Positions 3,059-44,399 of a stretch of DNA of 63,468 nt are shown in pieces. Every line of letters begins with the position of its first letter. Positions within the stretch are counted from its first letter, which is position 1. The position numbers and the translations under genes are program-made. The stretch is from positions 308,822,533 to 308,886,000 of the forward strand of contig CM097883.1 in NCBI GenBank assembly GCA_044892505.1, given 5' to 3'. This DNA comes from Schmidtea nova (Eukaryota). The notes under the pieces are model-generated. The model worked only from the letters and a program-made list of their open reading frames with translations, had not been told where the DNA came from and ran no database searches.

Positions 3059-3095
<37 letters not shown>

Positions 3096-14389: not shown

Positions 14390-17300
14390 CTATACCATCA
14401 TTATCGTCTTTTCCTCGTATCGTTCGTCATCTTCTATTTGTTTCCAGAATTCTTTACCTTTCGTTCTTCTTTGGAATTCTTTCTGTATCTCTTCTGGTAT
14501 TTCTATTCTTTGTTTCATAATTTTAATATCTGGCCATTGTATGGCTGTCGCTTTGTTTCTCTTTCTGTATCTCCAATATATTATCATGCTTGTCGTCATT
14601 ATCCCATATGCTATTAATATTCCTATGCTAATTAATCCTATTACTGTTTTTCCACGGTTTGTTTCTCCTTTATTCTGGTTCGCTTTTATCTCATTTTGGG
14701 TTTGAGCCTCTGGCTTCCTCTCTTTCTGTATTTGATTCTTGACTTTGTTCATTACTTCTTGTGTAGACCAATGGCGGTTTAGTAGTTGTTTGACGTTATT
14801 TTCTTTTGTTCGGTTTTCCACGTTTCCTGGTTCGATCTGTTGTTGTAGTTTCTCTGAGATCTGATATAATCCGCATTCTGGTTTTTCTGAACCTTTTCTG
14901 GTGAAGGTACATATCGCGTATGTCCTATTTACTTCCATTTTCTTTAATTCGACTTTTTCTTTATTCTTTATTTCTTTACAGTGGGTTAGGTTGTCTTCTT
15001 CCCCTTCTGGGTTATGCTTTGTCCAACATATTCCTTTAACTGTCTGATCGAGTCCTGTTAATGTCAGAGTTCTTTCTGTCTTTGTTAATTCTTCTTCATC
15101 GAATTTCAGTATCTCTCCTTTTTGGAATGTCTTGCAATGCTCTATTCCCTCTTGGATTCCTCTCTCCCAGATACATATACTTCCTTCTTCATTCATTTGT
15201 ATTTCTTGTATTTCGATTTCCTTGTTTGTTCGTGATTCGTCGCTTGTCTGAACTTGGTATTCCTTCCTTGGTTCGTTGTATGTTCCCCAGCATAGTTTGT
15301 TGCTACTTGTTTTCCTTATTGTTATGGCCATTTGTTCTATTATTATTCCTTTATCGATACGTTTGGACATTGCTAGTATTAATGCAATGCATACGCACTC
15401 CTGTTGGGGTGATATTCTTTCTCTCGTTTTATTGGTGCTCCTCTCCCCTTCTCTTGGTTTGTTCGTTGTATTTTCCTTCTGAGTTGCTGGTCGATCTATT
15501 GTGTTTTTGATCTCTTTCTTTGTTGGTTTTACTTTGTACCACTCAAGTCTAGGTGTTTCATATTTTTGGCATACGACTGTCTTAGGTAGCCCTGACTTCT
15601 TTTCCTTTCCTATTATACATATCCGATGCATGATTCCTCTGTCCATCCCTTCTATTCGTACTATATCCTGGTTGGATTTTCTGACTATACATTTTAGTGG
15701 GTTATCTTTCCCAATTGGTTCATCCTCTCTATTCCAGCATATTTTCTCGACCTCCTGGACATTTACTATTTTTATCCCTGCTTGTAGGTTTGTTGCTTCT
15801 TCCCTATTGATTAATGTTAGTATTATTGTTAGACCCAACCATTTTGAACTCTGCGGTAGGCTTCTGGTTCGCCTTTCATATTTTTTCTCTTCTCCTTTAA
15901 TCTCTTTTATTTCCTTGTCTTTGTTGTTTATTCCTAGTTTTCCGCTTTTTGCTTCTTTCTTTTTTGGTTCTTCTCGTGCTTCTTCTTCTAGCATTTCCAC
16001 TCCATGGCTTGTACTGTCTCTATTTGTCCATTGGGTTACCGATTTCTTTGGGTTTATCTTGCGTATCCATATAGCTGATAACGCGATTATTACTGGTATG
16101 GTCGCTGTTAATATTCCTAAGCCGATTAGTTCTTTAATTTCTTTATTCTCGTCTGTTTGTATAGGTTCGCTTTGGTTGAACATTATTCCGTATTGTCCCT
16201 TTAGTTTTCTCATTAATTGTTCTCGTTCCTCTTGCTTTCTTTTGACTTCTTTGATAACTTCTTCGGGTGTCCATTTTGCTTGAGGGTCGGTTATTGTTTT
16301 TTCTGCGTCCATTTGTTCATTCGTTTGGCTTAGTTCCCTGAATTCGAGTTTCCTTGTTATTCCTTTTGATGTTGCGTTTACTGGTGTATAGTAGGTTTCG
16401 CATCTTTCTTGTTGGTTTTCTAGTGCGTCCGTTTTTTCTATTGTACATACTTCGTACTCGCTATTAAATTGTAGTCTTTCGATCTTGATTTCTTTATTTG
16501 TTTTTCTGCACTCTCTTGATTGTCTTCTTATATATTTCTGGACTAGTATCCAACATATCTCCAATGTTTTATTCTCTATTTTCCATAATGTCAGAGTTGC
16601 TGATGTCTTTTTCTCGGATTTTGTCGTAACTTCTTGGCTTATCGGTTGTTTATTGTTTTTAAAGGTAGTGGTGTACTTCGGTTTCCCTTTGTTTCGTTGT
16701 CTTCTTTTATTTTTTCGTGTTAACGTTTTAGTTCTTGTTCCGGAGGAAGTGGTGTATATTCCGCATTCAAGATCGTTTATCGTTATCTGATCATTTTTCT
16801 TTACCAGACATATTTCGTAAGTTTGTTTACTTTCTAAACCTTTTATTTGTATCGTCGTTGCTCCTGTACTTGTTCGACATTGTGGTGTCTTTCTTTCATT
16901 CGTCTCTTTTTCGTACTTCCTCCAGCATACTCCTTTCACATTTGGTTCTATTTCTTTTATTTCTAATGTTATGTTTATTTTCCGCTTGATTTGTTTATTT
17001 CTCTTCCTCGTTCTCCTTCCGAACTTTATTACTTCTCCGGGTTGAAATGTTTTACATTTTGTGGTACCTTTCTTGTTTGTCTCTTTTTCTAATAGGCATA
17101 GTTTGTACATCTTATCTGCTTTTACTTCGGATACTTTAATTACTTTGTTTGTTGTTGGTTTTCGACTTTTCCTTATTTCATTTACGCCGATTTCCTCGTT
17201 ATTCCTCGCCCAACATTTTATGTTAGTATTCTGTGTATCTTCTACTTCTGTTATTGTCATAGTTTCAATTTCTATTCCTTCCTCTAATCGTTTTATTATT

Positions 17301-17473
17301 ATTAGTATGAGTGCTAAGCATAATACTTCCATTTGGTAAGACACTCTTTCGGTTTCGTTTGTGGCAACTCTTGCTTCGGGTCTTTTTATTGTAATTCGTA
17401 TAGTTGGTGTTGTTTGCTTATCTATTACCTGGGGTTTTTTGTTTTCTGTTCCCTGTGTCTCTGTATGCAACAT
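14390..17473 (-). CDS. 1027-aa membrane protein with six Cys-containing FN3-like repeats and two TM anchors; probable frameshifted continuation of the polyprotein
   Basis: Repeated motif CW-x(n)-I.I.GL...Y.IC-x13-15-C. TM segments LIGLGILTATIPVIIALSAIWI (about 16064-16135) and VIGLISIGILIAYGIMTTSMIIYW (about 14573-14645). Overlaps the end of the 4633-aa ORF. Confidence 0.8.
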   Translation of the reverse strand: MLHTETQGTENKKPQVIDKQTTPTIRITIKRPEARVATNETERVSYQMEVLCLALILIIIKRLEEGIEIETMTITEVEDTQNTNIKCWARNNEEIGVNEIRKSRKPTTNKVIKVSEVKADKMYKLCLLEKETNKKGTTKCKTFQPGEVIKFGRRTRKRNKQIKRKINITLEIKEIEPNVKGVCWRKYEKETNERKTPQCRTSTGATTIQIKGLESKQTYEICLVKKNDQITINDLECGIYTTSSGTRTKTLTRKNKRRQRNKGKPKYTTTFKNNKQPISQEVTTKSEKKTSATLTLWKIENKTLEICWILVQKYIRRQSRECRKTNKEIKIERLQFNSEYEVCTIEKTDALENQQERCETYYTPVNATSKGITRKLEFRELSQTNEQMDAEKTITDPQAKWTPEEVIKEVKRKQEEREQLMRKLKGQYGIMFNQSEPIQTDENKEIKELIGLGILTATIPVIIALSAIWIRKINPKKSVTQWTNRDSTSHGVEMLEEEAREEPKKKEAKSGKLGINNKDKEIKEIKGEEKKYERRTRSLPQSSKWLGLTIILTLINREEATNLQAGIKIVNVQEVEKICWNREDEPIGKDNPLKCIVRKSNQDIVRIEGMDRGIMHRICIIGKEKKSGLPKTVVCQKYETPRLEWYKVKPTKKEIKNTIDRPATQKENTTNKPREGERSTNKTRERISPQQECVCIALILAMSKRIDKGIIIEQMAITIRKTSSNKLCWGTYNEPRKEYQVQTSDESRTNKEIEIQEIQMNEEGSICIWERGIQEGIEHCKTFQKGEILKFDEEELTKTERTLTLTGLDQTVKGICWTKHNPEGEEDNLTHCKEIKNKEKVELKKMEVNRTYAICTFTRKGSEKPECGLYQISEKLQQQIEPGNVENRTKENNVKQLLNRHWSTQEVMNKVKNQIQKERKPEAQTQNEIKANQNKGETNRGKTVIGLISIGILIAYGIMTTSMIIYWRYRKRNKATAIQWPDIKIMKQRIEIPEEIQKEFQRRTKGKEFWKQIEDDERYEEKTIMMV

Positions 17474-20400
17474 GCAATTGTGTTGTGTGATCTTGGATGC
17501 TTTTGTTTTCTAACGGTGCATATTTTGTACCAGGTATTTAGATCTAGGTCGTTGATCTCTATGATCTCTTGCTCGTGTTTTGAGATTCTGCAATCCATCG
17601 GGCTATTTTGTTCCGTGATTTTGTCCTTTTTTGACCAACATACTCGTTCGATTCCTTTCGCGTTTTTTATTTGTATTATTGCCCTTTCTTCACATGTCAT
17701 TCCTTGACTTGGATTAATTAACGTTATAATCATTGTTAGTAATAGTAATTCGGGTTTGAAGAATGGTTTTATGGTTGATTTATAACCTGTTCTTTGGGTG
17801 TCATTTTTATCTCCTTGGACGTTTTTTCCTTGTTCTCCATCTTCATCTCTTTGTTTTTCGTCTTCACTTTTCTTTTCTTCCTTGTCTCGTTTCTTGTCTT
17901 TTCTCTCGTTTTCCTCTTTATCGGGTGGTTCGTGATCGTTTGAATTTTCTGAGTTGTTACCGTCGTCACTATCTGTATTGTCATCTCCCCCTGGCTCGTC
18001 GAAAATGTCGTCCTCGACATTGATTTCTTCTATCAATTTTGCATATGCTAATGTCGTTAGATTACTTGCCTCAAATTCTTGTGTTTCTACCTGCTCCGGT
18101 ATTACTTTGTTTGTGGATTTATATTCTAAGATTTCCTTTTTGGCCTTGATCCAATTGTTGATGTATGTCTTCATCAATTCTTTCCATTTGCCTGTGTATT
18201 TTTCTTCTTTCGGGCTGGTTGTGATTCTTAGATCCTTTCTTTCCATAAACATCTTCAATATCTCTGGCCATTTATACGTTATTAAGGCACTTCTTATACA
18301 CCAGTTTTGGTTATGTTCTGTAAACTTATTAATCCTGAATGCTGGTTCGTTAGTATTAGGATTTATCCACGTAAGTATTGATTCTGTTAGTTCGACGTTG
18401 TTCATCATTGCTAGTACACTGGGTTTCTTGACCGAATCAGTTAGGTGATCTATTTCTTCCTGATTTGGGACGGTTTTAATGAAATTGACCATTTCCCAAT
18501 TGTGTGTTAATAATGCTACATCCAATATCGAATTATCTTTATCTGTCTTTCCAGTAAGTCCTGCACCTGCTTTGTATAGTTCTTCTAATACCTTTGTTTT
18601 CGTTTTGGCCCTTGCTGCAAATACCATAAGTGTATCTCCTTTCTCGTCTATCATATTCATATTGCTTCCGCAATTTAGCATTACTCTTGCAATTTCCATT
18701 ACTTTCCTATCTTTGCCATTTCGTAGAGCTCTATGTATGGGCATTATTCCGTCTTTTGGTAATAGGAATGTTACTGGCATCTCCTTTTTTATTATTACTA
18801 TGTCGTTACCATTGTATGTTCCTTTTGCGTATGCGTGTACTTTTTCAACTAATGCGCCGAGTATTTCCAGTGCATGTTTACTATTCTCGAATTCCGGTAA
18901 CAATTCTTTTGCTTTTTCTTGTATCGCATCTAGTCTAGCTTGGTATGGTGCTTCTGCTTTGAAGAGTGGTGTGAGTTTCTTGTTACTTTCTCTTTCTTTT
19001 TTCTCTAAAACCTGTTTGCATTTTTCGGGATGGTTTAAGATTTTTACTAGCTCCTCATATTCGCTTACTATCGTCTGGTATTTCTCGTTAAAATTGTTTA
19101 TGTCTTTGTATGTTATTAGTTTATCAAGTGGTTTCGCACACCATTTCCTAATCTTATTGAATAAGGCTTCCTTCTCTTTATCGAATTTGTATTCTTCTTC
19201 ATTCTTTGTGATGTTTATGTTTCCTCTGTCTAATAAGGTTAGTAATGTCTTCTGATCACAAGTAAATTTCAAAAGGTATCTTAACAGTGCGTTTTGTCCT
19301 TCGCTGTATACTTCGTTTATGTCTAAGACCCATGTATCATCTTCTGGTCGTTTCCATTTGATTAACTTACGGATCGTGTTGCATTTACCAATTTTGATTG
19401 CCTCTTTGATAATGTCTCTTTTAACTAGTTCGTCTATTTCCCAAGTGCAGTTAGCTATTATGTATTTCAGCATTGGTTGGTGAGAACTCCATATTACGTG
19501 ATTTAGCACTGTTTTGTCTTCTCTATCTCGTTCTGTCCAACTGAAATGAGCTTTTATCAATAGATCTATCATTTCTTTATCTGCTTGGTGGATTGCGGCT
19601 GTCATTAATGGAGTTTCTTGTTCCCGATTCCCTATGTCCAAGTTTTGGTTTGTTTCTTTTGCGATTTTTAGGAATTCTTTTGCTCTTTCCATGTTTTTAC
19701 ACTCTATCGCATTATGTAAGGCTGGTTGTCCTCCTACATCTTTCAATAAGAGTATTTCAGGGATTTTTTCCAATAATTCAGAAATAATTGGTTCGGTTGG
19801 TAATCCTTGTGCGTAACGGCTAATTATATGTCTAATATCCCTTGATATGCCTGCTTCGTCTTTAACATGCCATCTTCCCATTATCTCTCTCGCCTTCAAT
19901 ATGATTTCTTTATTTCTGATTTCTTTTTGCCTTATTTCTTCTTTGTCGTCTTCAGTTGCATTAGCTCTGAGCATGTTTATCCTGGCTGTTTGTGATCTGG
20001 TTATTATTCGATTTTCTGGTGTTGTAGTTATCGTTTTAGGCACCTTCTTACATCTGCAAGTGTTTACATATATGGGTCGTATTAACGGTCGATTTATTAG
20101 CTTAACTTTGACATTATTGTCCTTTTTGTATATAATTTCATACGGTCCTCTTCCAGGTCTTTGGAGTTTCTTAACTGTTCCTGGTATTATTTCGGGAGTT
20201 TCTATTATCACCCAATCTCCTGGTTTTAGATCGTTCGCTTTAACATTTTTCTTCTGGTCGTGTAAGTCCTTATAACTTTCCTGATAAAATTTGATGTTGA
20301 GTTCTGCCGTTTTCCATATTTCCTGCATTCTTTCTTTGAATTTGGTTACATAGTCGTCGTCTTCCATGTATTGCGATAATGGTGGTTGATACTCTAAATC

Positions 20401-23400
20401 TATGGGCATGTTGCATTCTCTTCCATACATAAGTTGAAACGGGCTTAGTTTTGTTGCTGCATGTATCGACATTCGGTATGCCATTAAACATAATTTTATA
20501 TATTCGTCCCAATCAGTCTGATGTCTGCTGACGTAATTTGATAACATTCTGATCAATGTACCATTGAATCGCTCCGTTTGTCCATTCGTTTGCGGGTGAT
20601 ATGGTGAAGTTCTCAATTTTGCTATTCTGAAATAGTTTGTCACCTCGTTCAATAACTCACTCATGAAGTTAGTTCCTTGGTCTGTGAGTATTTGTTTTGG
20701 AGTTCCGTATCTGCAACATATTTCTTCTACCAAAATTTTTGCTACGGTTTTTGCTTTTTGGTCTTGCATGGCAAATGCTTCTGGGAATTTTGTCAGATAA
20801 TCCGTTATTACCAATATATAAATATTTCCGTTTAGACTTTCCGGTAATGGTCCTATTACGTCCATTGCTATAGTTGTCATTGGCTCTGCTGGTATCGGCA
20901 TTGGTTGTAGCGGGTTCTTCCATTTCTTCCCACTATCCTTTCTGGTTGCACAAGTTAGACAATTTTTAATCCATTCCTTTATATCTTCTTCCATTGTTCG
21001 CCAATAATATTTTTGTCTCATACGGTTTATTGTCTTTTTCTCGGACATATGACCTCCTAATTTCCCATCATGGTATTGGATCATTATCTCTTTCCTTCTG
21101 TTTTCCGGTAAACACATCAATCTCTTTTCTCCGTCTTGTATTAACAACCATCCTTTATTTATTATGTAGCGATGTTGATATTTTCCTATATGTTCCTTTA
21201 ATTCCTTATTATCCTTGAATGCCTCCATATTTCGAGACGTTAGGAACTCTATGATCTGTCCCAATTCTTTGTCTTCCTGTTGATCTTTCTTTAACTCACT
21301 AAAATCTAAATCCTCCGCTATTAATACACAAATTCGTTGTACATCAGGATCGGTTAGTTCCGGAAATGTCAGTCTTGACATACAATCTGCATTCGCATTC
21401 GCTTTTCCTGATTTAAATTTTATGTCTGGTGAGTACTCCTGTAACTGCATCGCCCATCGCATTAATCTACTGGATGTTTCCTTGTGCTGTCCTAACCATA
21501 CAAGCGGTTGGTGATCTGTTGTTATGCAGATGATGTGACCCCATAATAAATATTTAAAATGTTTTATTGCTAGTATAATCGCTAATGCTTCCCGTTCTGT
21601 CACTGAATAATTTTTCTCATGCTTTTTGAATGTCCGGCTATAATATCCGATTACCCGTTCCTTTCCTTCGTCGTCGTATTGTCCTAATACGGCTCCTGCT
21701 GCATATCCGCTTGCATCTGTTGCAAGTAGGAATGGCTTCTTGAAGTCTGGGTGTACCAATATAGGTGCGGTTATCAGTTTATCTCTCAACGTTTCAAAGG
21801 CTGTTTGCTGTTCATCTCCCCATATGAATGATACATCTTTCTTTACCAGCTCCTGTATAGGTTTTGCTATTCCGGCGTAATCTTTTATAAACTTTCTATA
21901 ATATCCACATAGTCCGAGAAATTCTTGTATTTGGATTATTGTTTTTGGTACTGGACATTCTTTTACCTTGTCGATGTTTCTAGGATCCGGTTCTTTTCCT
22001 TTTGCTGACACTATATGTCCTAAAAATGTTACTTTCTCTTTAGCCCAATCACATTTGGATGGCTTGAGTTTTAACTTCCATTGTCTAAGTCTAACGAATA
22101 CATCTCGAATATCTTGTATGTGTTGTTCGAATGTACTAGAATAAATTAATAAATCGTCGATGTAGACCATGCACTGCTTTATTCCATGGGTGACGAAATT
22201 CATGCATCTCTGAAATGATGCTGGTGCGTTCGTTAATCCAAATGGCATCTTTCGAAATTGATATAGGTCTCTACCGATGGTAAAGGCAGTTTTCTCTTTA
22301 TCCTCTTCCTTCATTTTTATTTGCCAATATCCGCTTTTCAGATCTAACGACGTAAAATATGCTGCTCCTTGTAATGTTAGTAGCATCTCGTTGATGTCTG
22401 GTAATGGGTAAGTATCTCGTTTTGTCACTGTATTCAATCTTCGGTAATCTATACAGAATCTCTGTGTTCCGTCTTTCTTCTTCACCATTACCACTGGAAA
22501 TTGCCAGGGTGAACAACTTGGTTCGATTACTTCTGCATCCAACATTTTCTTCACTTCCGCTTCTGCTACTGCTTTCTGTGCTTCCGCTAATTTGTACGGC
22601 CTTAATGCAATTGGTGTTTCATCTGTTAATGGTATTGTATGTAGTGTGACATCACATGTTCCTAGATCTAAATCGGATGCTGCAAATATATCCTTATACT
22701 CTATCAGGAGTTTTTCTAATTGCTTCTTTTGATCCTCATTTAATAATTCACTATCAATATTCCAGGTTGGCTCTTTATCTTTCTCTGCCCCTTCTATTGG
22801 TAGTTCGATATCCATCATTGGGGTTAGTTTGCCTAATCTTTCGTTTTCGTATATTATTTTGTCCTCTTCATCGAAGTTTACTACGTTTATTGGGATTTCT
22901 CCATCGTCATTTATGTTGACTAGTCCTCTTGCCATTGGCAATGCTTTTCTTTTCTCGAATCTTTTACTTGGTTCGAAAATCATATCACCTTGGATTGTCG
23001 GATCTATTTTTACGTAACATATTTTCTCCTTTCTTGCGGGTATGATCATTTGCTTTGAACTTGTCACTTTGGCTTCTATTGCGCATATTTGTCCGGTGCG
23101 ATCTTTTAGTCTCATTGTTCCGAGATCGATTACAATCTCTTTAAATAACGCTGGCATCAAATCTGTTCCGATAATGCAAGGCACGCTTAATGCTGGTATA
23201 ACTGCTACGTACGTATCGATTTCCGTGTTTAAGTGGCGTATTTTTACCCACCATCTTCCTGCTACTTCTACAACTTCTTTGCTACATGCAATTACGTGGA
23301 CGTTTGTCCTTTCTATTTCTCGTCTTTGCTCTTGTGGTATCCATTTGATGTCGATGGCGGAAATGTTTGCTCCCGTGTCGATCATTGCTTCGATTTCCCT

Positions 23401-26400
23401 TCCGTTAATCTCTATTGTCGTGGTTAGTACTGGACCTGTGTTTGATGACATTACTGCGATCGTGTGTGTATCTCCTTGTGGATCTACGCTTCTACATCTT
23501 CTCATTTTATAATCTTCCGGTATCATGGGGTATACATTTGTCATTGGCATCATTTGCATCGTGTTATTTTTTCCTCCTTGTAGTGGTTCTTGATACATTG
23601 TTGGTGGAGGTGCGTAACATTTCCATGCGTCGGCTGGATTCTTTTCGATGTATTGTGGTGCTTGGTTCTTATACACTTGTCCTCCCTTATAGTCGTCATC
23701 GTCATCATCGTCGTCACTCGAATCATTTTGGGTTTTATATCCTTTCATCCTTTCCCATAAACCTTTTCTTTCTTTCTTGAGCTGTTGTCTTGCTTGTTCG
23801 TCATTCCTTATCTTTTTAAATTTTCGTCCTACTTCTTCATCTGTTCCCTTCATTTTTGCTAATATCTTTAGGAGTCTTTTTATTCGGTGGATATCTTTTG
23901 AGTGGCCGTGTAACACCATCGTTTTCGCAAGGAATGGTAAAAACCCTACTACCATTTTCCAATTCACTTTCTTTTCTCTCTTGTAAATATCGAAACATGC
24001 TAACATTTGCGTTATTATCACTCTGACGATTTGGATTATTAGTATGACCCCCAGTATTCCGGCCATCATTTGTCCGAATATCAGAAATCTTCCCCACATT
24101 GCTTTCATCATGTTTTCTGTGGCTTTTTTGAAATGTGCTGGTGACAACAATAGTTCATAATTCGGTCTTTCTCGATAATCCGTTCCTCCCGTTATCGTTA
24201 CGATATTTGACAGTAATGCTTCTCTTCTCGCTGGAAATAATATATTCTGCCTTGCTGCTTCTAAATCCTTTGGACTATATATTCCGTTGTTTGAGACATC
24301 TACGTCGCTGAATTGCCTATCCTTTGACAACTGCATTAGCTCGAATTCTCTTGGTGCTATCACTTCGGATCTTCCTGGGAACATAACCCATTTACCATCT
24401 GGTTTCTGATAAAGCGGTCCATACGCATTACTACAGTTGAATGGATTTGGTTCAAACCCTGGTGGATTGATGATTCTCGTCACCGGTTGAACGTATCGTA
24501 CTTTTCCTTTGTAATCGATTTCTAACTCATTTGTACAGGTTCCAGGTTTCAACTGTGTTGTTGCTGCTAGTGACGCGTGTGTCTTTTCGCAAATGTATAC
24601 ATACATTGCTTCTCCAACCACTCTTCCGAAATGTCCTTCTCTCAGTGGTAATAATGGCATCGCGCTATCTGGATTCGTAATCGCTACCGCCAACTTTGTC
24701 TTTAATATTTCTCGATTCAGTATACAATCATTGTTTATCAGATTGTAGTATACTTTTTGTAATGAGGCTTGTCCTCTATGGAATAGGAAATCCATTTTAT
24801 TATTCACATATAGGTGTAGTTTGATATCCATTGTGTCGATTTTGGGTTTCGCATTTGGCACTTCTTGTTTTGACACATATATTCCTGGATAATTCGTTTC
24901 GTATACCGTTGTACTACACTTAAGGGTTGCTTTCCCTTTTATGAATCTCATTCCCACATCTTGATTTGTGGTTATCAATACTGTTGGTGTGGCTCTCATC
25001 TCTATTCGTTTTTCTCTATGATCTGGTTTCAGTTGTCTTTTATTCTCTAAAGCTTCCTTGAGATGCTTTGCTCTATCTTTGTCGTCATCGTCTTCTTCCT
25101 GGAACGTTTTTCCTTGGATTTCGTCGAACTTTGCTCCTTGTAGCAGTTGTAATTGGCATTCGTTCACCTTTGGTTTGTATACTAATGTTGACATTCCCGT
25201 TTGACACATGCTCCTGTCGATTTTACACATGGATAACGTTTTCATTTCTCCCGTTGTTGGTTCGAAGAATGCTTCGTAGCTTTTCAGTTCGACTATATAC
25301 GTATCCATCACCACTAAGTTGGTTGCGGGTACTCCGAATATCGGGTAGGTTTCTCCTTGACAATATCCTTCTCCTCCCGTAATCCGTCCTGCTACATAGT
25401 ACGTCTGTTGCATCATCATTCCTGGCTTTCCTCTTATCTTGATTTTATCTCTTGTTGTTACTTCTCCATGTTTAAACAGTGCTTCGCAGTCTTCTCCTTG
25501 TAACACGATTGGTTCTCTTTCCGTTCCTGGCATGACAATTGCTGAATAGTGTCCTCTCCCGCAGTAGAATGCGAATCTCGTCTTCTGCACCTTACATTCA
25601 TTCACCATTGTCTTTATGAGTTCTGCTTCTTGATACACGTGGTACCATTGTTCCTTTTTAATCTTTTGCAACTCTACTGGAGTTGCATCTTTGCATTGCT
25701 CCGTACCTCTTAATGAATACTTTTCTCCTAACTTCATTTGGTCGCAATCAAATACTTTGAATGCTGTTGCGCTATCGGTGCTAATCATCCATATCAACAT
25801 CATCATTATTATAGAACTCAGATTCATTGATGACTTTGCGTTTCCTGTTCCTGTTTGTTCTTTTTCTAACTCTTCCAATATTTTTTCGAATTTCTTTTTC
25901 ATATTCTTGGCTTGTGTTTTCTTCTGGTTAGTTTTTATAAATGTTTCCCATCCTCCTTTGTTAATGACGTAAGGTTCTATTTCTCTAGCTATAATCTTTG
26001 CGGTGTTTTTTATATGTCTCTCTAATGCAGTGGGTTTTGGTCGACCTCTACTCAATGTCAACAGATTGTAGATCGTGTATGCAATGGCTATTACGTATTT
26101 GTTATCAGTTTCCGCTCCTTCTGTCAATTTCTTTATTAACGTAGTGGTTCCTTGCCAGTCTAAATGATTTGACTTCGTCTTTTCTTTTATGAATTCCGGT
26201 AAGATGGGTGCGATTGCGCTGTGTAATGACTTTGCCTTTTCGCTTATCTCAGTTAAGCGCCAGTATTTTCTCAATTCCGGATCAATTATTGCCAATATCT
26301 CCATTATCGTTTTCGATATCCATTCCTCCCCTTGACATATTGGTGTTGTCTCTTTTTCTTTCATCTCCGCAATTTTATTTAATTTCCTTAAACATAATTC

Positions 26401-29400
26401 CCATTGATCTTGTCTCTTTTCGTCTTTATTTCTTACAACTACAGTTGCTGGGTCTGTCTTAGGTCTACCTCTAGGTCGTTTATCCATTCCTGTACCTGTT
26501 TCCACAAACCTTGTTGCTCGTCCGGTTTCTTCGGTGACATCTCTTGGTTCGTTAGCTCTTTCTTCTAACCATCTTTCCATTTCTTGTGTTAATTGTACAT
26601 TTTCGACATTCGCTCCTCTTGTTTCGTCTTCTGTTAGATCGTTTACTTCTTCTATTATTATTTCTTCTTCGACTTCTGCTTCTCCGGTGTTGGTTACTTG
26701 TATTGTCGTAGGTAGTTCTTGTATTCTTTCGAAAATGTTATCGTCCTTTTCCCTTGTTAATTCGGTTAACTCTTCTATCATATCGTCGCTATCCGTTAAA
26801 ATTTCGTCCACGTCGTATGGTTGTGGTGGAGTCCTTTCTCTGGTTCCTCTGGGTGTTGTCTCAGATCGTCTTGAACTTGTCCCTGGTGTTAGTACTGATT
26901 TCATCGGGCTTGGCGTACTTATACTTCCGTGTGGTTTATGGTTTTCTTCTTTACGTTTCAATGGTTGACCCGCTATTGCTTCTACTGTCAAGGTATTCAT
27001 GAGGTCTAATTGTGCTGGCGTTATTCCGATTTCCAAACTGTTATCTAATGATCGTCCTTGGTGTTGTAAATGGAATGGTGGTTCGTATCTCAATTTCTTT
27101 TTAATATCTCGAATTTTTTCTGCTATTCCTACCCACAACTCTTCCTTATCCTTGTTTGGGTATATTATTCTTAAATGTACTTTCTGTGGAATTTCCTGCG
27201 AGAATTCTTGATTTCTCCATTTCCTAATTACGTGGTCTAGTTGTTCCGGACACCACTCGTTAACTCTTTTATATTCCGCGATTGCTTTTGCTACTTTACG
27301 CAAGCATGTTATATCTTCCCCATTTACCACGAAAAAATCTGCGAGACCCTTTATTACTTTTCTCTTACCGTGCGCATTAGTTTTTAATATTTCGACAAAT
27401 TCTTCCGTTTTTTGCTTTTCCCTTTCTAACCACATGGCCGCTGTTTCTGGTCCATCTAGGTCTATTGGCGTAGCTTTCCTTGTTACCATGCAAACTCTTC
27501 CTATCTCTGGTTCGCAGTCATCTTCAATTCCTCTTTTATATTCTTCTTCATATTCCCCTTCTTTTGGTTCCCAACATTTTCCTTTCTCGTTCCATTGTTT
27601 TTCTCCGGGTGTTCGTATTCGTCGGTTGAGATTGAGTTCTTCTAATACATTTTCCCATTCCGGCCGAATTCGCCAATTTCGATAGATGTCTATTATTTGT
27701 TGTAATTTGCGCACAACTTCTTTCCGTCGTTCCCGTTCTCTTTTCTCATCTTTAGCAGTTTCCCTTGGTGTATCGTCCATTCTGCTAACGTGGATTGTTT
27801 GGTGATTATCCCATATACCGATTTTATATAATCGTCTCTCATCGTGATCCCATAATACATGTTCGTTGTATTGTATGATTATGTCGTCTTCCCATTCGTC
27901 TTCTGGTTCTCTTTGCACTAGTGTCTCGTTGATGACATTTATTAATTCCTTAATGGTGCAATCCGCTACCACTTCGATTTCTTTGGTGTCCTCATTAGGT
28001 AATTCTACCGAAATCTTTAGATCTGTTATTTTCCCTTGTCTAAACATTGTTTTTCCCATTTTTGCGATTAATTTGTCGTGTGAGATCTGTGACCATCTCG
28101 TGTGGCTTGTGTCACGTATGCACTCAATACATCGTTTCAATTTCTCGTATTCGCTTCTCATTAATTCTTTTCTATGTTTTTTGACTTGTGGTATGATTTG
28201 TTCTATCAGGGAATTTAGATTCTTTCGTAAGACTCGTTCTTTCTCGTATTCTAACCGAGGTTTTATTCTCTTTTCGAAGCACGTGTTTGCTTCTCTTGCA
28301 ACTTCTTGTAGGTTCTCTTCTTCCTTTTCATCACATATTGATAACAGAGTTATTTCTCCTGGCCATATACCTGTTTCCACTAAGTGCGTTCTTTTCTTTA
28401 CGAGTCTATTCTGCGAATAGATGAATTTGTTTTTATATGAGCTCCCTAGTCTATCCTCTACCCATCTGTAGATATCGTCTGTAAATGGAGTTTTGATCCA
28501 GATTCTTGGTGTAGATGTATTTATTATTATTGAGATGGTGTAATTGAGGAGTGGTTCCTCTATTAATTTCCCTACGTATCGATTCAACATGTCTACTTCC
28601 CGGTCTTGTAACCATTCTTTGTAGTTCATTTGTAATAATGCTTTCATGAATTTCCGATATTGTTTCTTGTCCATGAACTCTTCGTTATATATTACTTCTA
28701 GCGAGTTATCTAGTAATTTCTGGATTTCATCTACTTTTATCTGTGTAGGTTCTGAGGTCTTTATTACTTCTCTCTCTTTATTTTCATCTTCGGATTCGTT
28801 TAATATGTCTCCTGCTAGGCTACTGATATCACTATCTTCTTCTTCATCGGAAAACTCTCTGGTGGTATTTCTTAGCATATTAATATGTGCTATTTGGTTC
28901 GTTTCTCCTTGTATATTCTCCGTTGGTTCTGGTTCGTTTTTGTCAATTTCTGGTGTTGGTTCACTCTTGTCCTCTATTACTTCGACTTTTCCCATTTTCT
29001 TTCCCAACTCGTCTATCTCTTTTAAACGTCTTCTTATCATTTTTCCTTCAAATATTCGCCGGATTCGGGTTTCGTGACGTATTGGTGGTGGAATTTCTTC
29101 TGGTTTTATTTCTTTAATTCTCATCACATTTCTTTTTGTCTCTGTTACTCCCACGTTTTCCCATGTATCTGTTAATTTTAATTTTACTGATGGTGCATCT
29201 CCTATTTGTAAGAACGCTTCTCTGGGCAGTTTTGTCACTCCTGGAATCATCTGGTTTACTTTATTGAACAGTATTTCCACCTTTTCTTTTGCGTTATATT
29301 GGAATCGAAACATATGGTCGTTGGGCATGATTACCATCATTCCTTTTTTCCAAATTTTTCTTCTCTCTTCTTGGTTTATCTCAGTTTCCTCTCCCTTTTC

Positions 29401-31326
29401 TGCTTCTTTTTCTACTTCTTTATCTTTTTGTACTATTTCTTTTCGACTTTCGTTGTCGGCTGGATTCGGGTCTATCGAATTCATTTCCAGTGTGGTTTCT
29501 TCCTCGCGAGTGTCTGTTTGGTTTATTGCTCTTAACATGTTAATTCTTAGAGGTTGTCGCTCTCTTTCTTGCTGTTTTTGTTCATCCTCTCTTTGTATTC
29601 TTGCCCATTCCTGAGCGTGTCGTGCTTGACTTTCTCGATTCAATCGTTCGTTTTCGCTTTCTATTTTTCTCATCATGCTAATTTGCTGTTGATTGGTTTG
29701 CGGATTTCCTCTCGTCGTATTGTTTATAAGTTCCGTCAATCTTTGGACTTCTTGCATTAAATGTATTTCTTTGGGGGTGGTTTTGTTCTGATTATTGTTA
29801 TTATTGACTTGTTGGTTCCCATAATCTGGTCGGTTTACGGTATTTGCTTGATTTCCGTAATTTGGTCGGTTCCCATTACTCTGCCAGTTTCCTCGTTGAT
29901 TACTTTTTTGTCCGCAATTTCTTGAATAGTGACCAGGTCGTCCGCAATTAAAACAGATTATTGTAGAACATCTGCTTTCCGAGTGTCCTTTGACTCCACA
30001 TTTTCCGCAATTCAAATTTTGATAGCATTCTTGCTGCCAGTGTCCCAACTTCCCGCATGTTTTACATTGTTTTGTTTGTCCTTGAGGGTTGTAATTGTTT
30101 TGGTTTCCAAAGTTCTGCACTTTATTTCCTTCATTCCTTCGTTGAGGGGGTGGTCGGTTTAATTGTTGCGAATTTGGAATGTGATTGTTGAGATTTACCT
30201 CTGGTTCGGTTTGTGCTGTGTCCATGGCTAAATAAATTCTGCCCTCACTTCCTATCATATGCAATTCAAATCGGTTAGCTGTTTCTAACGCTTGATCTAT
30301 GGTTTTGCATCCTTGACATCCTACTTGCGCTCTTATGTCGGGTCTTCTTAGTCCTCCTATGAAGATAGCTGCCATTAACTCCTCGTTTATTGGGCCTCCA
30401 TCCTTGAATACCGATTTTGCTAATTTTTTCAGTTCGCTCGCGTATACCGCATTAGATTCATTCATCTTTTGTTTCCTCATTGAGAATTCTATGAATGCCT
30501 CGCTTAGCACTTTATTTATTCCAAATGTTTGTTGGAAAAAATCCTTTATCGCTGTCCAGCTTGTAGGTGGATTGGTACCATTTTTCGCTTCCAAATATAG
30601 GTCCAATGCACTATCTTTCAAATATAACTGAATTCTGCTTACCGTTGTTTCAGCTTTCCATTTGCATACTTCCACGAATATGCCAAATTCTTTTAAAAAG
30701 GTTTCTAATTTACTCGCATCTCCGTTAAACGGTTCTCCTGAAAATTTATCCTTTATTTCTTCTCTTGGTTCACCCATTTCAATTCCGCTGTCTTGAGTTA
30801 TTTTACTTTCGTTTCCTCTTGTTTCTAGTTCGTTGTTATGTTCGTCTTCCGTTTTACTCGAGCTTGAATCGCTTTCTGTTTCTCTTATTCCTTCGTTATC
30901 TGATATTATACTTTCGTTATCACTCGCGTTGATTTCTATCTCTGGTTCTACCTCGTTTTCTACTTCTTCGATATTATCGTTGTTAGTTTCGTCGATTTCT
31001 CCTTCTTGTTCTATCTCGTGTTCTATTTCTTCGATATTATCGTTATTAGTTTCGTCGCTCTCTATTTCACTTGCTTGGTTCTCCTTGGGTTCGGCTTGGT
31101 TTTCTTTGTTACTTGAGCTGTTGCTTACTATTGACAATTTATCGTTTTCGGTAATCGATTTATCTCTTATTATTTTCCTCGATTTACTCCCTTGTGGGTT
31201 ATCTTTGCCGACTTTCTGCTTTTTTGTTGATTTTGTTGTAGTACTAGTTTTGTCTTTTTTATTATTGTTGCTACCGACTTTCTTTTCCGTTGGCTTTACT
31301 ACGACACTCTTTGCTCCTTTTCTCAA
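17425..31326 (-). CDS. 4633-codon Gag-UBL-Bcl2-Env-PR-RT-RNaseH-IN-ankyrin polyprotein
   Basis: Single uninterrupted frame with the motifs listed as sub-features. The track start is TTG; the first ATG is at 30777. Confidence 0.95.
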   Translation of the reverse strand: MRKGAKSVVVKPTEKKVGSNNNKKDKTSTTTKSTKKQKVGKDNPQGSKSRKIIRDKSITENDKLSIVSNSSSNKENQAEPKENQASEIESDETNNDNIEEIEHEIEQEGEIDETNNDNIEEVENEVEPEIEINASDNESIISDNEGIRETESDSSSSKTEDEHNNELETRGNESKITQDSGIEMGEPREEIKDKFSGEPFNGDASKLETFLKEFGIFVEVCKWKAETTVSRIQLYLKDSALDLYLEAKNGTNPPTSWTAIKDFFQQTFGINKVLSEAFIEFSMRKQKMNESNAVYASELKKLAKSVFKDGGPINEELMAAIFIGGLRRPDIRAQVGCQGCKTIDQALETANRFELHMIGSEGRIYLAMDTAQTEPEVNLNNHIPNSQQLNRPPPQRRNEGNKVQNFGNQNNYNPQGQTKQCKTCGKLGHWQQECYQNLNCGKCGVKGHSESRCSTIICFNCGRPGHYSRNCGQKSNQRGNWQSNGNRPNYGNQANTVNRPDYGNQQVNNNNNQNKTTPKEIHLMQEVQRLTELINNTTRGNPQTNQQQISMMRKIESENERLNRESQARHAQEWARIQREDEQKQQERERQPLRINMLRAINQTDTREEETTLEMNSIDPNPADNESRKEIVQKDKEVEKEAEKGEETEINQEERRKIWKKGMMVIMPNDHMFRFQYNAKEKVEILFNKVNQMIPGVTKLPREAFLQIGDAPSVKLKLTDTWENVGVTETKRNVMRIKEIKPEEIPPPIRHETRIRRIFEGKMIRRRLKEIDELGKKMGKVEVIEDKSEPTPEIDKNEPEPTENIQGETNQIAHINMLRNTTREFSDEEEDSDISSLAGDILNESEDENKEREVIKTSEPTQIKVDEIQKLLDNSLEVIYNEEFMDKKQYRKFMKALLQMNYKEWLQDREVDMLNRYVGKLIEEPLLNYTISIIINTSTPRIWIKTPFTDDIYRWVEDRLGSSYKNKFIYSQNRLVKKRTHLVETGIWPGEITLLSICDEKEEENLQEVAREANTCFEKRIKPRLEYEKERVLRKNLNSLIEQIIPQVKKHRKELMRSEYEKLKRCIECIRDTSHTRWSQISHDKLIAKMGKTMFRQGKITDLKISVELPNEDTKEIEVVADCTIKELINVINETLVQREPEDEWEDDIIIQYNEHVLWDHDERRLYKIGIWDNHQTIHVSRMDDTPRETAKDEKRERERRKEVVRKLQQIIDIYRNWRIRPEWENVLEELNLNRRIRTPGEKQWNEKGKCWEPKEGEYEEEYKRGIEDDCEPEIGRVCMVTRKATPIDLDGPETAAMWLEREKQKTEEFVEILKTNAHGKRKVIKGLADFFVVNGEDITCLRKVAKAIAEYKRVNEWCPEQLDHVIRKWRNQEFSQEIPQKVHLRIIYPNKDKEELWVGIAEKIRDIKKKLRYEPPFHLQHQGRSLDNSLEIGITPAQLDLMNTLTVEAIAGQPLKRKEENHKPHGSISTPSPMKSVLTPGTSSRRSETTPRGTRERTPPQPYDVDEILTDSDDMIEELTELTREKDDNIFERIQELPTTIQVTNTGEAEVEEEIIIEEVNDLTEDETRGANVENVQLTQEMERWLEERANEPRDVTEETGRATRFVETGTGMDKRPRGRPKTDPATVVVRNKDEKRQDQWELCLRKLNKIAEMKEKETTPICQGEEWISKTIMEILAIIDPELRKYWRLTEISEKAKSLHSAIAPILPEFIKEKTKSNHLDWQGTTTLIKKLTEGAETDNKYVIAIAYTIYNLLTLSRGRPKPTALERHIKNTAKIIAREIEPYVINKGGWETFIKTNQKKTQAKNMKKKFEKILEELEKEQTGTGNAKSSMNLSSIIMMMLIWMISTDSATAFKVFDCDQMKLGEKYSLRGTEQCKDATPVELQKIKKEQWYHVYQEAELIKTMVNECKVQKTRFAFYCGRGHYSAIVMPGTEREPIVLQGEDCEALFKHGEVTTRDKIKIRGKPGMMMQQTYYVAGRITGGEGYCQGETYPIFGVPATNLVVMDTYIVELKSYEAFFEPTTGEMKTLSMCKIDRSMCQTGMSTLVYKPKVNECQLQLLQGAKFDEIQGKTFQEEDDDDKDRAKHLKEALENKRQLKPDHREKRIEMRATPTVLITTNQDVGMRFIKGKATLKCSTTVYETNYPGIYVSKQEVPNAKPKIDTMDIKLHLYVNNKMDFLFHRGQASLQKVYYNLINNDCILNREILKTKLAVAITNPDSAMPLLPLREGHFGRVVGEAMYVYICEKTHASLAATTQLKPGTCTNELEIDYKGKVRYVQPVTRIINPPGFEPNPFNCSNAYGPLYQKPDGKWVMFPGRSEVIAPREFELMQLSKDRQFSDVDVSNNGIYSPKDLEAARQNILFPARREALLSNIVTITGGTDYRERPNYELLLSPAHFKKATENMMKAMWGRFLIFGQMMAGILGVILIIQIVRVIITQMLACFDIYKREKKVNWKMVVGFLPFLAKTMVLHGHSKDIHRIKRLLKILAKMKGTDEEVGRKFKKIRNDEQARQQLKKERKGLWERMKGYKTQNDSSDDDDDDDDYKGGQVYKNQAPQYIEKNPADAWKCYAPPPTMYQEPLQGGKNNTMQMMPMTNVYPMIPEDYKMRRCRSVDPQGDTHTIAVMSSNTGPVLTTTIEINGREIEAMIDTGANISAIDIKWIPQEQRREIERTNVHVIACSKEVVEVAGRWWVKIRHLNTEIDTYVAVIPALSVPCIIGTDLMPALFKEIVIDLGTMRLKDRTGQICAIEAKVTSSKQMIIPARKEKICYVKIDPTIQGDMIFEPSKRFEKRKALPMARGLVNINDDGEIPINVVNFDEEDKIIYENERLGKLTPMMDIELPIEGAEKDKEPTWNIDSELLNEDQKKQLEKLLIEYKDIFAASDLDLGTCDVTLHTIPLTDETPIALRPYKLAEAQKAVAEAEVKKMLDAEVIEPSCSPWQFPVVMVKKKDGTQRFCIDYRRLNTVTKRDTYPLPDINEMLLTLQGAAYFTSLDLKSGYWQIKMKEEDKEKTAFTIGRDLYQFRKMPFGLTNAPASFQRCMNFVTHGIKQCMVYIDDLLIYSSTFEQHIQDIRDVFVRLRQWKLKLKPSKCDWAKEKVTFLGHIVSAKGKEPDPRNIDKVKECPVPKTIIQIQEFLGLCGYYRKFIKDYAGIAKPIQELVKKDVSFIWGDEQQTAFETLRDKLITAPILVHPDFKKPFLLATDASGYAAGAVLGQYDDEGKERVIGYYSRTFKKHEKNYSVTEREALAIILAIKHFKYLLWGHIICITTDHQPLVWLGQHKETSSRLMRWAMQLQEYSPDIKFKSGKANANADCMSRLTFPELTDPDVQRICVLIAEDLDFSELKKDQQEDKELGQIIEFLTSRNMEAFKDNKELKEHIGKYQHRYIINKGWLLIQDGEKRLMCLPENRRKEIMIQYHDGKLGGHMSEKKTINRMRQKYYWRTMEEDIKEWIKNCLTCATRKDSGKKWKNPLQPMPIPAEPMTTIAMDVIGPLPESLNGNIYILVITDYLTKFPEAFAMQDQKAKTVAKILVEEICCRYGTPKQILTDQGTNFMSELLNEVTNYFRIAKLRTSPYHPQTNGQTERFNGTLIRMLSNYVSRHQTDWDEYIKLCLMAYRMSIHAATKLSPFQLMYGRECNMPIDLEYQPPLSQYMEDDDYVTKFKERMQEIWKTAELNIKFYQESYKDLHDQKKNVKANDLKPGDWVIIETPEIIPGTVKKLQRPGRGPYEIIYKKDNNVKVKLINRPLIRPIYVNTCRCKKVPKTITTTPENRIITRSQTARINMLRANATEDDKEEIRQKEIRNKEIILKAREIMGRWHVKDEAGISRDIRHIISRYAQGLPTEPIISELLEKIPEILLLKDVGGQPALHNAIECKNMERAKEFLKIAKETNQNLDIGNREQETPLMTAAIHQADKEMIDLLIKAHFSWTERDREDKTVLNHVIWSSHQPMLKYIIANCTWEIDELVKRDIIKEAIKIGKCNTIRKLIKWKRPEDDTWVLDINEVYSEGQNALLRYLLKFTCDQKTLLTLLDRGNINITKNEEEYKFDKEKEALFNKIRKWCAKPLDKLITYKDINNFNEKYQTIVSEYEELVKILNHPEKCKQVLEKKERESNKKLTPLFKAEAPYQARLDAIQEKAKELLPEFENSKHALEILGALVEKVHAYAKGTYNGNDIVIIKKEMPVTFLLPKDGIMPIHRALRNGKDRKVMEIARVMLNCGSNMNMIDEKGDTLMVFAARAKTKTKVLEELYKAGAGLTGKTDKDNSILDVALLTHNWEMVNFIKTVPNQEEIDHLTDSVKKPSVLAMMNNVELTESILTWINPNTNEPAFRINKFTEHNQNWCIRSALITYKWPEILKMFMERKDLRITTSPKEEKYTGKWKELMKTYINNWIKAKKEILEYKSTNKVIPEQVETQEFEASNLTTLAYAKLIEEINVEDDIFDEPGGDDNTDSDDGNNSENSNDHEPPDKEENERKDKKRDKEEKKSEDEKQRDEDGEQGKNVQGDKNDTQRTGYKSTIKPFFKPELLLLTMIITLINPSQGMTCEERAIIQIKNAKGIERVCWSKKDKITEQNSPMDCRISKHEQEIIEINDLDLNTWYKICTVRKQKHPRSHNTIACCIQRHREQKTKNPR
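17470..17755 (-). other. Polyprotein C-terminus: signal-like hydrophobic segment plus first FN3-like repeat
   Basis: ELLLLTMIITLINPSQG then RVCW...IIEINDLDLNTWYKICTV...IAC, paralogous to the unit after WLGLTIILTLIN in the 1027-aa ORF. Confidence 0.65.
18400..19740 (-). other. Ankyrin repeat region C-terminal to integrase
   Basis: GGQPALHNAI, QETPLMTAAI, DKTVLNHVI, IMPIHRAL, KGDTLMVFAAR and DNSILDVAL, spaced as ankyrin repeats in two clusters. Confidence 0.85.
20030..21100 (-). other. Integrase (HHCC zinc finger, DDE core, GPY/F)
   Basis: YHDGKLGGH...CLTC; MDVIGPL; TDQGTNF; HPQTNGQTERFN; GRGPYEI. Confidence 0.95.
21370..22680 (-). other. Reverse transcriptase and RNase H
   Basis: RFCIDYRRLN, LDLKSGYWQI, MPFGLTNAPASFQR, YIDD (22153-22164); TDASG, EREALA, TDHQPL. 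Confidence 0.97.
23130..23436 (-). other. Retropepsin aspartic protease
   Basis: IEAMIDTGANIS (DTG at 23371-23379) and CIIGTDLM. Confidence 0.93.
23900..25827 (-). other. Class III fusion-type (chuvirus/herpes gB-like) envelope glycoprotein, about 640 aa
   Basis: Signal-like IIMMMLIWMISTDSATA, then FKVFDC...YSL...C, FYCG, GYCQGETY, DCILNREIL...NP...GEAMYVYIC, CTNEL...YVQPVTRII, GIYS, and TM WGRFLIFGQMMAGILGVILII. This matches the cysteine/motif pattern of chuvirus-like glycoproteins as I recall it. Confidence 0.8.
25931..26322 (-). other. Bcl-2-like domain
   Basis: BH2-like IEPYVINKGGWETF; degenerate BH1 region DNKYVIAIAYTIY; helical pattern of the expected length. Confidence 0.7.
26974..27180 (-). 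other. Ubiquitin-like fold 3
   Basis: LRIIYPN...EKIRDIKKKL...FHLQHQGRSLDNSLEIGI...TLTV parallels ubiquitin TIENVKAKI...LIFAGKQLEDG. Confidence 0.55.
27781..28020 (-). other. Ubiquitin-like fold 2
   Basis: LKISVELPNEDTKEIEVVADCTIKELI...IIIQYNEHVL...LYKIGIWDNHQTIHV. Confidence 0.65.
29113..29340 (-). other. Ubiquitin-like/UBX-like fold 1
   Basis: MMVIMPNDHMFRFQYNAKEKVEILFNKV...LTDTWENVGV...VMRI. Confidence 0.45.
29914..30777 (-). other. Gag capsid-like domain plus three CCHC zinc knuckles
   Basis: FNGDASKLETFLKEF...LYLKDSALDLY...RKQKMNES...FIGGL; CKTCGKLGHWQQEC, CGKCGVKGHSESRC, CFNCGRPGHYSRNC. Confidence 0.93.
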
Positions 31327-31936
31327 GGGGATTACTTTTGTATACTCAATTTTCCTGTTCTATCTCTTATCGTTTTCTGATTCTTCTTGCTTGATTGATT
31401 GATTTGATTGATTTGTATATCTAAAATACAAAGGTCCTCAACGATACATTATTGTTATCGTCGCGCTTTTATTCCCTTTCTTTCGGGATTACTTATTACT
31501 GGGTTTTCATTATTTCCCAATTCCCAGATTCCCCTTTATTTTTAGTCTATTTAAATTATCTATAGACTGGTCACAATTATCTATTTACGTCGTAATAATT
31601 ATCTATGTTTTATCAAATCGATTACTTTTCCCACAGTTTCCCAATTATTGGTCGCTCGAGCGCTCTAATTCCCTGAGTCTTTCTGACTCGTTTATCATTA
31701 TTTTATCATTTCTATTCATTATTCCCTGCTAGCAATCGTTTTACTCATTCTGCCGGTGGCTCCGGTCAGCTCAAATCTCTACTATTCTCCTTGCATGCTT
31801 TACTTAAGGTTGCATAATCAGCTTTACTCGCATTCTCTTAACTACTAGTGCGCACTACTCTAAATTTCGTCGACGATTATACTATGGGTCTATATTCCCT
31901 CTGTTACTATTTATCCGGATATCTCTATAATTCACT

Positions 31937-32191
31937 ATGGCTCTTCTGGCCTCAATTTTATATCTCACATGGCTCTATTGGCCTCATTTTACTATCTCAA
32001 ATGGCTCTATTGGCCTCAATTTAATCTCTCAAATGGCTCTATTGGCCTCAATTTAATCTCTCAAATGGCTCTATTGGCCTCAATTTAATCTCTCAAATGG
32101 CTCTATTGGCCTCAATTTAATCTCTCCAATGGCTCTATTGGCCTTAATTTAATCTCTCAAATGGCTCTCTTGGCCTCAATTTAATCTCTCC
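31937..32191. repeat. Tandem array, 8 x 32 bp
   Basis: Unit atggctctattggcctcaatttaatctctcaa starts at 31937, 31969, 32001, 32033, 32065, 32097, 32129 and 32161. Confidence 0.95.
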
Positions 32192-32232
32192 ATAACGCCT
32201 AGCTAGGTCATTCAATAAGGCTCATTGGCCTC

Positions 32233-32527
32233 AACCCTTTTTTTCAAGGGACAAACCGCTAATAACCCTTTGTTTCAAGGGACAAATCTCATAACCCTTT
32301 GTTTCAAGGGACAAATCTCCTAACCCTTTGTTTCAAGGGACAAATCTCCTAACCCTTTGTTTCAAGGGACAAATCTCCTAACCCTTTGTTTCAAGGGACA
32401 AATCTCCTAACCCTTTGTTTCAAGGGACAAATCTCATAACCCTTTGTTTCAAGGGACAAATCTCATAACCCTTTGTTTCAAGGGACAAATCTCCTAACCC
32501 TTTGTTTCAAGGGACAAATCTCCTAAC
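32233..32527. repeat. Tandem array, about 10 x 29 bp
   Basis: Unit taaccctttgtttcaagggacaaatctc(c/a) with period 29 from 32263 to 32523, plus a variant first unit at 32233. Confidence 0.95.
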
Positions 32528-33003: not shown

Positions 33004-33465
33004 TTATAAATATACAATAATTTTATCGTCTATCATCAGGTTGCACATAGGACATAGGTCGCACTTGCTGGCACATATTTTACAAAAACGAAAATGTCCA
33101 CAAGGTAAAAACATAATTTGTATCTCGCTATCCTCACATATATAGCACTGTCGGTATTTTTTCGCTGCTTCTACCCCCTGCGCCCTCCATCGATTGTATG
33201 TTGGGGTTAATCGTTGTTCTATTTGCCTGCACTTAATGTTTAGTTCTGCATTTTCTAATCGTGCTCTGTACCATTTGTAGCGGGTCTCTATGTCGATTTT
33301 TCTTGTCCTTTCTGTTATCTTTATTAATTCATCTGTTTCCTCAGTCTGTGTTGTGGGTTCCTGAAATTCAATTTCTCTAAATCGGTTTATTTTCTTGCCA
33401 ATCGTTTCTAATGTTTCGCTTTCTGTGTTGAGAAATTCTTCAATTTCTTTCAGTTTTTCCTCCAT
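33004..33465 (-). CDS. 153-aa coiled-coil plus C-terminal IAP-type RING finger protein (no BIR domain)
   Basis: CYICEDSEIQIMFLPCGHFRFCKICASKCDLCPMCNLMIDDKIIVYL parallels the cIAP/XIAP C-terminal RING and ends at the C-terminus. Confidence 0.85.
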   Translation of the reverse strand: MEEKLKEIEEFLNTESETLETIGKKINRFREIEFQEPTTQTEETDELIKITERTRKIDIETRYKWYRARLENAELNIKCRQIEQRLTPTYNRWRAQGVEAAKKYRQCYICEDSEIQIMFLPCGHFRFCKICASKCDLCPMCNLMIDDKIIVYL

Positions 33466-33772: not shown

Positions 33773-33790
33773 ATCCCGGCTGAGCCCCCA
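33773..33790 (-). promoter_or_regulatory. Primer binding site, tRNA-Pro type
   Basis: Minus strand TGGGGGCTCAGCCGGGAT matches the classical tRNA-Pro PBS TGGGGGCTCGTCCGGGAT at 16/18. Confidence 0.85.
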
Positions 33791-34264
33791 AATTTATGCT
33801 GGGTTCATGGAGGGGTTAGATGAAAAATGTTCTAACAATGACTAGGGATCCCTCATCCATGATCATGCATAAAATTGCAATTTTACACTCAAGCGCCCTT
33901 GATTATTTCCCTATATAATCAAGTTGGTGATGCGCAGGGTGGTTAAACAATGATGGGCAGGTGAGCACTATCGCTAGTACTACTCCCCATTTATGTTTAC
34001 GGGTCCATTGCTGCCGTTAGAAGGACTTATGCTTTAATCATCCACTTATGTATTCCGTGTTAATCTTTCAGAAAATTTATTTTTATCATTACCCAGTCTG
34101 CGAGAAGTATCTCAACGAATGCTCGCTTAATTATTTAATTATCTCTATTCGGTATTTGGTAAAATAAATTTACACTTTTGTTCTATCTTTATCTAATCAT
34201 TGGTAAAGTTAATTAAATCAATTTAAATGAACGATAAAATTCTTAAGCCAATACAACAATTTAT

Positions 34265-44397: not shown

Positions 44398-44399
44398 GT

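Follow-up and report, generated by a model that had tools for sequence, protein, structure and literature searches.

A gB-like envelope gene in one frame with gag and pol in a giant Ty3/gypsy element of Schmidtea nova, probably of the Burro type and likely to be made as a polyprotein threaded through the membrane

Giant gypsy elements of planarians, termed Burro or GYPSM1, were described by Arkhipova and Yushenova in 2019 (PMC6431247, citing Grohme et al. 2018). As far as that account describes them, they are about 30 kb long, with long LTRs, tandem repeats and TRAF/MATH and RING accessory genes, and a single ORF of about 5,000 codons carries Gag, CCHC motifs, a Bcl-2-like segment, an env in frame between that segment and PR, then PR-RT-RH-IN and ankyrin; the element from Schmidtea nova analysed here is like them in these respects, its Bcl-2-like segment being a weak candidate. 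It differs in that its TRAF gene is a separate downstream ORF and in that its family carries signal-FN3-TM modules after the integrase, which are absent from the part of the Burro account used here. Its env appears to be a class III, gB-like protein, whereas the Burro env was likened in the same paper to gypsy/baculovirus-type Env, with mononegavirus matches noted. BURRO1 transcripts are reported to rise in differentiated cells upon loss of PIWI (PMC8532177).

Errantiviruses with the order GAG-ENV-POL and an ENV of the HSV/gB type were catalogued in Platyhelminthes, Nematoda and Bryozoa by Chary and Hayashi in 2026 (PMC13524379). Our element shares gene order, env class, multicopy state and intactness with those elements, among them Smed_errantivirus_1-6; compared by eye, its env is nearest to that of Smed_errantivirus_5, and a second family in the genome is nearest to Smed_errantivirus_1. 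The main text of that paper does not treat topology or expression and contains none of the terms 'polyprotein', 'in-frame' and 'splic'. Atlas virus and the nematode belpaoviruses have a single stop-free Gag-Pol-Env polyprotein with a glycoprotein captured from an RNA virus (bioRxiv 10.1101/2021.11.23.469668), but as described there they belong to the BEL/Pao lineage and their env is class II, phlebovirus-like and located at the C-terminus, so that Pol never follows a membrane crossing. The original prediction had implied that the layout was novel; it has been in print since 2019 for Burro and was catalogued in GAG-ENV-POL elements of three phyla in 2026, and it adds little by itself. A literature search on how signal peptidase might process a polyprotein of this kind, with coverage that left most subscription journals outside, listed nothing that by its title or the opening of its abstract concerned these elements. 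New here are the class III assignment for the family, an env constraint equal to that of the protease among young copies, and evidence on the topology of a threaded polyprotein.

The window, a stretch of 63,468 nucleotides from contig CM097883.1 (assembly GCA_044892505.1, positions 308,822,533 to 308,886,000), carries the element on its minus strand. The element is 29,046 bp long with an incomplete 3' LTR, its internal region spans 23.4 kb, against about 25 kb for Burro, and the LTR repeats lie 26,506 bp apart. Its terminal and leader features are as follows.

33797..36899, minus strand: 5' LTR, 3,103 bp, TG...CA, with ends set from the paired LTRs and 4-bp target duplications of other copies
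7854..10393, minus strand: 3' LTR, last 563 bp missing, 1 mismatch in 2,540 bp against the 5' LTR
33773..33790, minus strand: primer-binding-site-like stretch, 6 nt past the LTR
31937..32527, no strand assigned: two tandem arrays in the leader (32 bp x 7.9 and 29 bp x 10.1)

The primer-binding-site-like stretch at 33773..33790 appears to resemble a tRNA-Pro site. In eight other copies compared at both ends, the LTR pairs were 99.6-100% identical, and a 4-bp target duplication was readable in five of the eight. The window copy has no target duplication because its 3' LTR stops 563 bp short at position 7854, beside an inverted-repeat element whose two arms lie at 663-1128 and 7134-7657. When the genome was searched with the env DNA, 893 first-look candidates were found, and all 40 that were scored were full length and at least 97% identical. 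The giant element is recently multiplied. The order PR-RT-RH-IN, a Gag with CCHC knuckles, TG...CA LTRs and, in other copies, a short target duplication are the marks of Ty3/gypsy elements present here, and we think it probable that the element is a giant Ty3/gypsy LTR retroelement of the Burro type that combines a single-frame gB-like env with a polyprotein likely to be threaded through the membrane.

Some further features of the LTRs and their surroundings were observed. An ORF of about 200 codons lies within the LTR (window 34265-34873 and 7795-8367, minus strand). Two copies (L037/L038 and L039/L040) contain about 780 nt of LTR that do not match window 36202-35446, which suggests that the family includes a variant LTR. 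Window 43050-48085, on the plus strand, holds another gypsy element, a small one with 308-bp LTRs that are 99.7% identical and with stops in pol.

The coding part of the giant element is one long frame, in which gag, the Bcl-2-like segment, signal, env, TM, PR-RT-RH-IN and ankyrin follow in that order. All of the features below are on the minus strand.

17425..31359: polyprotein frame, 4,644 codons between flanking stops, with its first Met at codon 195 (nt 30777)
29914..30627: Gag (Retrotrans_gag PF03732, E 1e-3, below the cut-off; three CCHC knuckles, PF00098, E 3e-9)
25930..26292: Bcl-2-like segment, weak, with a GGW motif at its end, in the position published for Burro
25762..25827: signal-like peptide internal to the frame, residues 1845-1866 (hydropathy peak 2.67 over 9 residues, A-x-A site at its end)
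24088..25761: class III fusogen-like ectodomain (PF24664, model and fold searches)
24013..24069: predicted TM helix, residues 2431-2449 (19-residue hydropathy 2.55)
23911..23967: second short hydrophobic segment, residues 2465-2483 (conserved GxxP; hydropathy 1.29, too polar for a full TM)
23149..23421: aspartic protease (PF00077, E 3e-7; catalytic DTG at residue 2661)
22009..22485: reverse transcriptase (PF00078, E 9e-37; YIDD at residue 3066)
21433..21747: RNase H (PF17917, E 7e-38)
20593..21108: integrase, zinc-binding and core domains (PF17921, PF00665)
19450..19719: ankyrin repeats (PF12796, E 4e-11)

The envelope segment predicted at 23900..25827 is real: it runs from Met1845 (nt 25827) to residue 2487 (nt 23900) in a stop-free minus-strand frame. 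Its placement between gag and protease held as far as frame is concerned, but env does not adjoin gag, as about 1,360 residues, including the Bcl-2-like segment, separate the last zinc knuckle (residue 482) from the env signal. The Bcl-2-like segment of the window had no match in Pfam or in a sequence search of solved structures; the same position in another family member (L113) matched PF00452 with an E-value of 0.0095, below the cut-off, and the two segments are 20% identical (E 0.004).

The single frame is not a peculiarity of this copy. Among 29 other copies picked by env, 22 had no break in the 6.2 kb that begin ahead of the Bcl-2-like segment and reach into RT. The seven others were broken, and the sole stop position that was repeated, codon 1816, was found in two of the 29. 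Since these 29 were the best-scoring copies, a second sample was taken, the top 20 by similarity to gag, eight of which were shared with the first. Eighteen of these were colinear from gag to RT and seven were fully open, while two left the element before env within the stretch examined. A gag-pol junction without env was found in none of the 20. No stop or frameshift site was common to any two of the gag-picked copies and just one stop position was repeated among the 29, so that a programmed stop or frameshift is unlikely and was rejected. Match lengths of 3200 and 3201 had hinted at a shared indel of 1 nt, which proved to be an end effect.

More distant relatives have the same arrangement. 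A genome search with PF24664 yielded 3,413 first-look candidates, of which 68 were scored; the same search matched none of 14 control genomes. With a threshold of 93%, the loci examined form eight env clusters whose identity to the window env is 35-80%, and env and PR were in one frame in the cluster representatives examined. Two metagenome contigs extend the range: in L143 env (39% identical to the window) and PR share a frame of 3,082 codons, and L145 (440-8518) carries a compact gag-env-pol ORF of 2,693 codons without Burro cargo, with an env 26% identical to ours. We conclude that the single-frame env layout is real, conserved and family-wide, and the fusion of env with its neighbors is not private to this copy. 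Nematode endogenous retroviruses likewise place ENV before POL in a metavirus. Those reportedly described by Sacco et al. in 2022 (J Gen Virol) are said to have a continuous gag-env-pro-pol ORF, nematode hosts and a compact form without Burro cargo, and L145 is a compact element of the same shape.

Two records may represent relatives that split the frame, or decayed copies. In L144 a TGA (3058-3060) lies about 22 codons before the mature env; it parts gag and the ubiquitin-like and Bcl-2-like segments from the env signal, and there is no Met between the stop and the mature env. In this single contig the TGA may reflect decay or read-through. The single record P0001 ends soon after env.

That the env is of the gB/chuvirus type, with a class III fold, is borne out by its sequence family and by comparisons made with a predicted model. 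It matches the Pfam family Monjiviricetes_fusion (PF24664) with an E-value of 1.1e-69 and 235 bits against a cut-off of 27. The ectodomain has 14 cysteines in its first 570 residues and one N-glycan sequon, and it keeps invariant cysteines among relatives spanning 26-80% identity. An AlphaFold2 model made from 13 sequences was weak overall (mean pLDDT 62, pTM 0.39), and residues 34-220 of the model form long strands that are mostly confident. Of the two candidate fusion loops, loop 1 has a conserved C-G, in many cases together with an aromatic residue, and loop 2 is polar. In the comparison with HSV gB that had been proposed with the prediction, Foldseek gave a best E-value of 7.6e-11 for HSV gB (probability 1.0), and all of the matches listed from the top 50 were herpes gB, with low TM-scores of 0.15-0.22. 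Seven class III fusogens, including HSV, HCMV and MHV68 gB, Bourbon virus Gp and Chandipura G, ranked first among 48,161 chains in VIA-align, at Z 5.3-7.6, all under the guide value of 8. Atlas listed eight matches at 0.92-0.95, each of them a cluster of PF24664, rhabdovirus G or GP64; its recognition value of 1559 is under the guide of 2300. Each of these lines has its caveat, and every one points to class III. Neither of the two outcomes named as refuting the prediction, a lack of structural likeness to class III fusogens or a fusion found in this copy alone, was observed.

A sequence search of solved structures with env alone or as a profile had no match. A protein search with a single env query found two relatives, one with the env alignment found none among 7,999 scored candidates, and no env relative was found among viral contigs. 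A conserved furin site was considered and rejected, as a furin-like REKR occurs in only one of nine proteins.

Signal and TM calls were made from hydropathy, and on this basis the predicted topology, in which Pol is brought back to the cytosol, was upheld: one strong TM lies between the mature env and the first PR in nine of nine proteins. The GxxP segment follows the TM in all proteins aligned. Were it to span the membrane, Pol would come to lie on the lumenal side; its hydropathy makes it more likely a membrane-associated helix on the cytosolic side. A Met ahead of the hydrophobic core of the signal is present in four of the nine proteins and absent in five, and four of those five have a Met inside the core. 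L145 has no Met in the 66 residues before the mature env, and the first Met of the window signal is Leu in a sister subfamily that is 80% identical. Because a Met at the signal is not conserved, an internal signal is favored over a dedicated start. In L143 (2-9247) a cassette of a signal-like peptide and a TM lies between two protease motifs; if it acts as signal plus TM, parity would be kept and RT would stay on the cytosolic side. The same contig has three protease-like stretches by Pfam and, past the integrase, a further signal-like peptide. In the window element, a long aspartate run and proline/tyrosine-rich motifs stand in the tail that joins TM and protease (window 23700-23900, minus strand). 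We take these proline/tyrosine-rich motifs to be reminiscent of budding late domains.

Taken at the level of sequence, the element, whose gB-like env shares a frame with gag and pol, is likely to be translated into a polyprotein that is threaded through the membrane. The cytosolic Gag-Bcl-2 part would be made first, and the internal signal would then direct the ectodomain into the ER, where signal peptidase would free its N-terminus. The single TM would stop transfer and leave PR-RT-RH-IN in the cytosol, to be cut loose by the cytosolic PR. The env would serve as a fusogen needed for spread, in enveloped particles or by cell-to-cell fusion. Gag, Env and Pol would come in a 1:1 ratio, as the original prediction held, and extra Gag may also come from a shorter RNA.

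An env that lies upstream of pol might stay open for no other reason than that stops would block the pol behind it, and this position does explain why stops and frameshifts are absent from a dead passenger. Read-through alone, however, conserves no amino acids: keeping pol readable weeds out stops and leaves residues free to change, and the constraint measured on env therefore means that its protein is needed. Selection was measured as piN/piS over 22 copies (231 pairs), comprising the window and all unbroken env-picked copies except one that has an in-frame deletion. The two halves of the ectodomain gave 0.050 (0.025-0.087) and 0.022 (0.007-0.050), compared with 0.021 for the TM region, 0.042 for PR and 0.008 for RT; env values thus lie at 0.02-0.05 with bootstrap upper bounds of at most 0.09. 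When the window was compared with two sister subfamilies, the ectodomain gave dN/dS of 0.04-0.21 with dS near saturation, and the TM region, at saturated dS, was 97% identical. Purifying selection on env is strong, these data already contradict the passenger reading, and we regard that reading as highly improbable. A swap of the ectodomain between the window family and L124 (env 80%, PR 95% identical) was rejected, as dS is high throughout.

The frame could be continuous and the protein levels still unequal, if a spliced or early-terminated RNA gave extra Gag or if a spliced leader started env. Retroelements usually need more Gag than Pol, four of the nine signals have their own upstream Met, and the stop in L144 falls just before the signal, all of which would suit such RNAs. 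Against them, none of the six YAG sites within 180 nt upstream of the signal is a pyrimidine-rich acceptor (at most 7 pyrimidines in 15), no env-skipped copy was found among the 20 gag-picked copies, and linker and tail show the amino-acid constraint expected if they are translated (piN/piS 0.11 and 0.05). We consider this arrangement unlikely. A rise in read depth over env in four short-contig runs was set aside as uninformative on splicing or level. Somewhat less doubtful is an env that acts within the cell or between touching cells, as an assembly anchor or in the fusion of neighbors, with no free infectious particle. Such an env is compatible with the polyprotein model, from which only the last step differs, and purifying selection shows that a protein is needed and not by which route it acts; the full class III architecture and the cysteines invariant across 26-80% identity are nevertheless beyond the need of a simple anchor.

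Beyond the main frame, and again apart from env, the element carries several further coding segments, all on the minus strand.

33004..33465: accessory ORF encoding a RING finger of the C3HC4 type (PF13920, E 3e-11)
14390..17772: post-integrase surface modules with signal-like peptides, FN3-like repeats and two predicted TM helices
12417..13796: accessory TRAF-like ORF with RING-like, TRAF zinc finger and MATH parts (PF22486, E 1e-20; PF02176, E 8e-8)
10597..12330: two further accessory ORFs, one of 362 aa, charged, and one of 201 aa with hydrophobic stretches

Of the TRAF/MATH and IAP-related cargo of Burro, MATH and RING parts were matched, and no BIR domain was matched in the proteins scanned with Pfam. 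In the window copy the post-integrase modules are cut off from the main frame near 17465, where about 80 nt present in all 39 other scored copies are missing; in 27 of 29 other copies the modules are in frame with the main ORF. The FN3 match is weak (PF24942, E 0.011), and a sequence search of solved structures with the FN3-like ORF had no match. The modules at 14390-17772 contain internal repeats, with hydrophobic segments in the order signal, short hydrophobic segment, TM, twice over, and the middle segment is at odds with a simple topology.

Returning to the threaded polyprotein, a bolder and more tentative reading, one we think possible though doubtful, is that the Burro elements of planarians function as enveloped viruses, each built from one polyprotein with several crossings of the ER membrane, in which a gB-like fusogen would precede Pol and FN3-TM surface proteins would follow it. 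The fusogen and the FN3-TM proteins would then possibly form a two-part system of attachment and fusion. If this is true, the selection on env among very young copies would mean that the elements multiply by re-entering cells. If particles were shown, a retroelement with flavivirus-like expression and spread from cell to cell could be tested in a standard model with adult pluripotent stem cells.
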